This document shows, in pieces, positions 41,884 through 42,342 of a stretch of 64,000 nt of DNA. Each line of letters opens with the position of its first letter. Within the stretch, counting starts at the first letter, position 1. The stretch is from a phage, in sequence record PZ179883.1, one strand, 5' to 3'. A program made the translations under genes and the position numbers. The notes under the pieces were generated by a model. The model worked only from the letters and a program-made list of their open reading frames with translations. It ran no database searches and had not been told where the DNA came from.

Positions 41884-42342
41884 TTATTTTAAATCATCTG
41901 CCCAATCGAGTTTAAGAGGCTCTTTGTATTCACGGTCAAGTACAACCGGAATTTGTACATCACCGCTAAATGATAAGGGCCCAACATTATAAGACAATGT
42001 TATATGCGGTGTGTAATCATCAAAATCGTGTGTAGCACCTAGTGCCCGCGCATACATGTGTCGACAGCGCAGATATTCAGAATCTAGCACAAGTACAAGA
42101 GTCGATCCATCTTGTGTTTTCCACACTTCTAAATGTCCAGAAGAAGCTACTTCAAAACTTCCACTCGATGGAACATATGGAACATTTACTCTCGAATAAC
42201 ATATGGTCGAATGAATTTTTTCTCTAGGAACTGGATTAGGAACACGTAAAGAGCGCTGGAGTTCTTCCAGCGCGTCAAGTGTTAATTCTGAAAACTTAGC
42301 TGCTACATAAAGACCCGTTGAAAAGTCTTTAAATTCCATCAT
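41884..42342 (-). CDS. 57B: anti-CBASS 2H phosphodiesterase Acb1 (gene 57B)
   Basis: 152 aa; two H-x-T motifs (HSTICY, HITLSY); position between ipI and 57A/gene 1. Confidence 0.7.

Follow-up and report, generated by a model that had tools for sequence, protein, structure and literature searches.

The window that we analysed is a stretch of 64,000 nucleotides of phage DNA (PZ179883.1), and the gene of interest lies on its minus strand in a neighbourhood where rising coordinates run against the direction of transcription. Read in that rising direction, the minus-strand genes are an HNH gene, homologues of trna.2, trna.3 and trna.4, an internal-protein gene, 57B, 57A, gene 1 (which encodes a dNMP kinase) and gene 3, and ten clustered tRNA genes come immediately before the HNH gene (table). 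This order agrees with that of phages T4 and PYPS2T, in both of which 57A is likewise the upstream neighbour of 57B. An earlier note on this DNA had placed the gene at the 57B position, and both flanks bear this out: 57A, gene 1 and gene 3 are found on one side, while the internal-protein gene, trna.4, trna.3, trna.2 and the tRNA cluster are found on the other.

Table. Features of the acb1 neighbourhood, with positions in the window.
Feature	Position	Strand	Basis and details
tRNA-His(GTG) with anticodon-loop duplication	39047..39128	-	ARAGORN, Rfam
HNH homing-endonuclease ORF	39923..40555	-	phrog_14736, E=6e-124
Internal virion protein gene beside acb1	41574..41819	-	phrog_8111
acb1 (gene 57B) CDS	41884..42342	-	ORF list; 152 aa plus TAA stop, ATG start; exact boundaries, stop codon counted in
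C-terminal residues 145-152, putative lid equivalent	41887..41910	-	Homology to FBB1 Acb1, aligned up to residue 149
Second catalytic H-x-T, H113-I114-T115 (CAT ATA ACA)	41998..42006	-	Read from sequence
First catalytic H-x-T, H44-S45-T46 (CAT TCG ACC)	42205..42213	-	Read from sequence
Second ATG of acb1	42337..42339	-	Tandem start codons
57A stop (TGA) / 57B first ATG overlap (ATGA)	42339..42342	-	Sequence reads ...GAA GAA TGA TGG...
Gene 57A homologue, tail fibre chaperone, 76 aa	42339..42569	-	phrog_1002 tail fiber chaperone, E=2.4e-27

The open reading frame begins with two ATG codons in tandem (MM...), and the second of these would give a protein of 151 aa, as annotated in the early T4 record X03016 and in several relatives; the numbering used in the Acb1 literature, and here, is that of the 152-aa form. 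The end of 57A, stop codon included, shares 4 nt with 57B when the first ATG is taken as its start and 1 nt when the second is. Of the six relatives that we fetched, RB49 has a 2-nt gap between the two genes, and the five others (SP18, Klebsiella phage 15882-3, Serratia WSPA, Aeromonas phage 25 and Acinetobacter LemonAid) have an annotated 1-nt overlap. We infer from these overlapping stop and start codons that the translation of 57A and 57B may be coupled. A scan of the region for promoters and terminators returned 9 promoter-like sites when 8.6 were expected, and we claim no dedicated promoter for acb1. One such site, at 41842..41870 on the minus strand (TTTACA, a 17-nt spacer and TACTAT, with a TG upstream), is found within the 64 bp that separate acb1 from the internal-protein gene, where it overlaps an inverted repeat (ATAGGGT...ACCCTAT); the region being no richer in such sites than chance, it is only a lead.

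Several features of the neighbourhood are worth recording in their own right. The product of the internal-protein gene starts with MKTYQEFIAE, a leader of the kind usual in T4 internal proteins; M5 of the listed open reading frame is probably the real start of this gene. Beyond its leader, the protein shows no relation to T4 IPI, the anti-GmrSD inhibitor. The gene is a different allele from T4 ipI, and PYPS2T carries two internal-protein genes at this same place; this is the variable internal-protein locus. Further down, the HNH open reading frame, listed with a TTG start and likely to start in reality at the ATG of codon 9, stands where T4 and PYPS2T have their tRNA-Gln gene. Only the first ~9 nt of that tRNA gene remain beside it, the adjoining tRNA-Leu gene being intact, and no tRNA-Gln was found in 37000..42000 using ARAGORN or in 38000..43000 using Rfam. 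The replacement of tRNA-Gln by the HNH gene is probably common to close relatives such as Escherichia phage UTI-E4, since these match the whole 8-kb region surrounding acb1.

In the tRNA-His gene of the cluster, 6 nt (TTGTGA) of the anticodon loop are duplicated in tandem, giving a loop of 13 nt instead of 7, and the anticodon arm reads CGAGA-TTGTGATTGTGAT-TCTCG. ARAGORN names no anticodon for it, and its Rfam tRNA score is 56.6 bits. Related phages have a normal tRNA-His annotated at the same place in a stretch that is 6 nt shorter, and exact matches in IMG/VR numbered 0 for the duplicated version vs 8 for the normal one. The duplication could be a real mutation that inactivates the tRNA or alters its decoding, or else a sequencing or assembly error.

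Turning to the product of the gene itself, we compared it with gp57B of phage T4 (NP_049750.1), taking the region around gene 57B in the reference genome NC_000866 for the DNA comparison. The two proteins are identical at 152 of 152 residues (BLASTP), while the genes share 449 of their 459 nucleotides, all ten differences being synonymous. Such a purely synonymous pattern points to purifying selection on a functional gene, and indicates that the phage is a close relative of T4 and not a copy of it. Many Tequatrovirus records, from phages of Escherichia, Yersinia and Shigella, contain the 459-bp gene without a single difference; with the limit set at 95% identity it occurs in 500 phage records, and at the protein level there are matches in 1486 records. 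Since the gene is shared with Tequatrovirus records and since the surrounding 8 kb show 98.9% identity with UTI-E4 and its relatives, the window is, judging from these matches, part of the genome of a Tequatrovirus, that is, a T4-type phage.

The family assignment is equally clear. The Pfam profile PF23474 (Acb1) matched residues 9-150 of the protein over its entire length (1-144 of 144) with 202.7 bits (E=2.7e-60), when the cut-off is 27 bits. Among solved structures, Acb1 from Erwinia phage FBB1 (7T26/7T27) aligned over residues 9-149 with 68% identity (E=4.2e-62), and a second and more distant Acb1, 9Q2G, gave a weak match. The earlier note had proposed an Acb1-type anti-CBASS phosphodiesterase of 152 aa with two H-x-T motifs, and had suggested an alignment with T4 57B/Acb1, naming low identity or missing catalytic histidines as what would speak against its proposal. 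That alignment, together with the profile match, upholds the proposal: the identity to T4 gp57B is complete, and H44 and H113 are both kept.

Exactly two H-x-T motifs are present in the protein, H44-S-T46 and H113-I-T115. When the protein was shuffled, two such motifs arose by chance in only 2.2% of cases; the decisive evidence for Acb1, stronger than the motif count, is the homology. The catalytic tetrad H44/T46/H113/T115 and the base-stacking aromatics Y12, W74 and F107, as defined for Acb1 (PMC9117128), are all present, and neither the tetrad nor Y12 varies in an alignment of eight sequences with identities ranging from 84% down to 43% (the window protein, FBB1 Acb1 and 57B of Shigella SP18, Klebsiella 15882-3, Serratia WSPA, RB49, Aeromonas phage 25 and Acinetobacter LemonAid). 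Considering that the 141-residue alignment to 7T26/7T27 at 68% identity contains a single one-residue gap, the predicted 2H phosphoesterase fold with a C-terminal lid can be regarded as certain, with residues 145-152 probably forming the flexible lid that would close over bound 3'3'-cGAMP.

The 2H fold is also what underlies the name under which this protein is usually found. T4 57B and many of its orthologues carry the RefSeq label "RNA ligase", PHROG 755 (phrog_755) describes the 57B family in the same words, and a LigT or 2'-5' RNA ligase type of enzyme, acting in RNA ligation or repair, shares its fold with Acb1 and gives a weak Pfam match (2_5_RNA_ligase2, PF13563) to the window protein. 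This match, however, reached 13 bits (E=0.11) against a cut-off of 27 and covered residues 81-123 only, compared to 202.7 bits for Acb1, so that membership of the LigT / 2'-5' RNA ligase family was rejected. Biochemically, the identical T4 protein is a cyclic-oligonucleotide phosphodiesterase, an activity that is lost in lysates of T4 Δacb1 (PMC9117128), and we found no ligase activity of 57B reported in the papers that we consulted. An RNA ligase or RNA-repair enzyme is thus a very improbable reading of this gene, and the "RNA ligase" label is an outdated homology annotation that reflects the 2H fold common with LigT. Most public records use either this label or "hypothetical protein", only a few recent ones saying "anti-CBASS protein Acb1", and we found no NCBIfam model that names Acb1 or 57B; these labels and this blank are annotation gaps, not contrary data.

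Our own analysis contributes protein identity, motifs and synteny; the enzymology and the anti-CBASS phenotype come from published work on the identical T4 protein. In that work, an activity degrading 3'3'-cGAMP was purified from T4-infected cells, traced to gene 57B (NP_049750.1) and named Acb1 (Hobbs et al., Nature 2022, PMC9117128). Acb1 needs no metal for catalysis and cleaves 3' of adenosine via a cyclic phosphate intermediate, whereas the 2'-5' bond of 3'2'-cGAMP is not cut; the H44A/H113A protein is catalytically dead (PMC9117128). Structures of the FBB1 protein revealed the fold of 2H phosphoesterases, a U-shaped pocket and a C-terminal lid made of residues 145-152, and, in the complex with cGAMP, the scissile phosphate was seen over the HxT/HxT tetrad (PMC9117128). 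Activity is observed ~15 minutes into T4 infection, and Acb1 blocked activation of the effectors Cap5, Cap4 and CapV in vitro (PMC9117128).

The phenotype of the corresponding mutant bears on a quite different idea, according to which 57B would assist gp57A in an accessory role in the assembly of tail fibres. The historical name 57B, the overlap between the 57A stop and the 57B start, and an adjacency that is kept across distant T4-like phages all fit such a role, but shared transcription explains the adjacency equally well, and the protein has enzymatic activity and a pocket that binds nucleotides. T4 Δacb1 plates >300-fold less efficiently on CBASS-carrying hosts only and grows like the wild type without CBASS, showing that 57B is dispensable for virion assembly (PMC9117128). 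On this published evidence we rejected the tail-fibre role, which is hardly credible.

Altogether, the gene is almost certainly acb1 (gene 57B) of a Tequatrovirus phage, encoding a metal-independent 2H phosphodiesterase directed against CBASS signals, and none of our results speaks against this. During infection, its 152-aa product would capture cyclic dinucleotides and trinucleotides that the CBASS cyclases of the host produce as signals, and would cut the 3'-5' bond located 3' of adenosine, through a cyclic-phosphate intermediate, with the two HxT motifs (H44/T46 and H113/T115) supplying acid-base catalysis. In this way, 3'3'-cGAMP, cUA, cAAA and cAAG would be linearised and the CBASS effectors (nucleases and phospholipases) would never be switched on, so that the infected cell would not commit suicide before the phage has finished.

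Two further activities can be considered. Acb1 might also disarm further defences, outside CBASS, whose signals are cyclic oligonucleotides containing adenosine, such as cA3 in type III CRISPR systems, although we regard this as rather unlikely. There is also the possibility that guard systems of the Panoptes type detect Acb1 itself when it is highly expressed: deleting acb1 in T4 leaves Panoptes defence unchanged, although plasmid-borne over-expression of Acb1 has some toxicity in Panoptes-carrying cells (PMC12657218). Because the window protein is identical to that of T4, neither reading is specific to this phage.

As it carries the canonical anti-CBASS nuclease of T4, the phage should resist the matching CBASS systems, meaning those that use 3'3'-cGAMP, cUA, cAAA or cAAG and not those that use cGG or 3'2'-cGAMP, and assigning Acb1 in this respect helps to predict host range, for example for phage therapy. 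From its sequence, the gene is indistinguishable from the type example of acb1, already known and ordinary. The value of the assignment lies in a correct annotation that mends the "RNA ligase" and "hypothetical protein" labels, with no new biological question attached, and since PHROG 755 says "RNA ligase" and NCBIfam is without a model, automated annotation will keep mislabelling acb1.

Compared with known systems, the closest is T4 Acb1 (gp57B) itself, the founding member of the family, with the same protein at 152 of 152 residues, the same order of internal-protein gene, 57B, 57A and gene 1 and the same overlap with 57A; the gene differs by its ten synonymous nucleotides only, and the neighbouring internal-protein allele differs from T4 ipI. 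FBB1 Acb1 (7T26 for the apo form, 7T27 with 3'3'-cGAMP) has the same tetrad, the same aromatics and the same 2H fold and lid, with 68% identity over 141 residues, but this orthologue comes from another phage with another host, differs at about one third of its residues and has a one-residue insertion after position 80. LigT / PF13563 proteins and other 2H phosphoesterases belong to the same fold class and have two HxT/S catalytic motifs, yet the substrates of the LigT family are RNA ends or 2',3'-cyclic phosphates, whereas those of Acb1 are cyclic oligonucleotide immune signals. Finally, Apyc1 (an MBL-fold protein acting on cNMPs), the AcrIII-1 ring nuclease (cA4), the poxins (2'3'-cGAMP) and the sponges Acb2, Tad1 and Tad2 follow the same strategy as Acb1, which is to remove a nucleotide second messenger of the host, but they do so with unrelated folds and with other substrate ranges, or by sequestration instead of hydrolysis.
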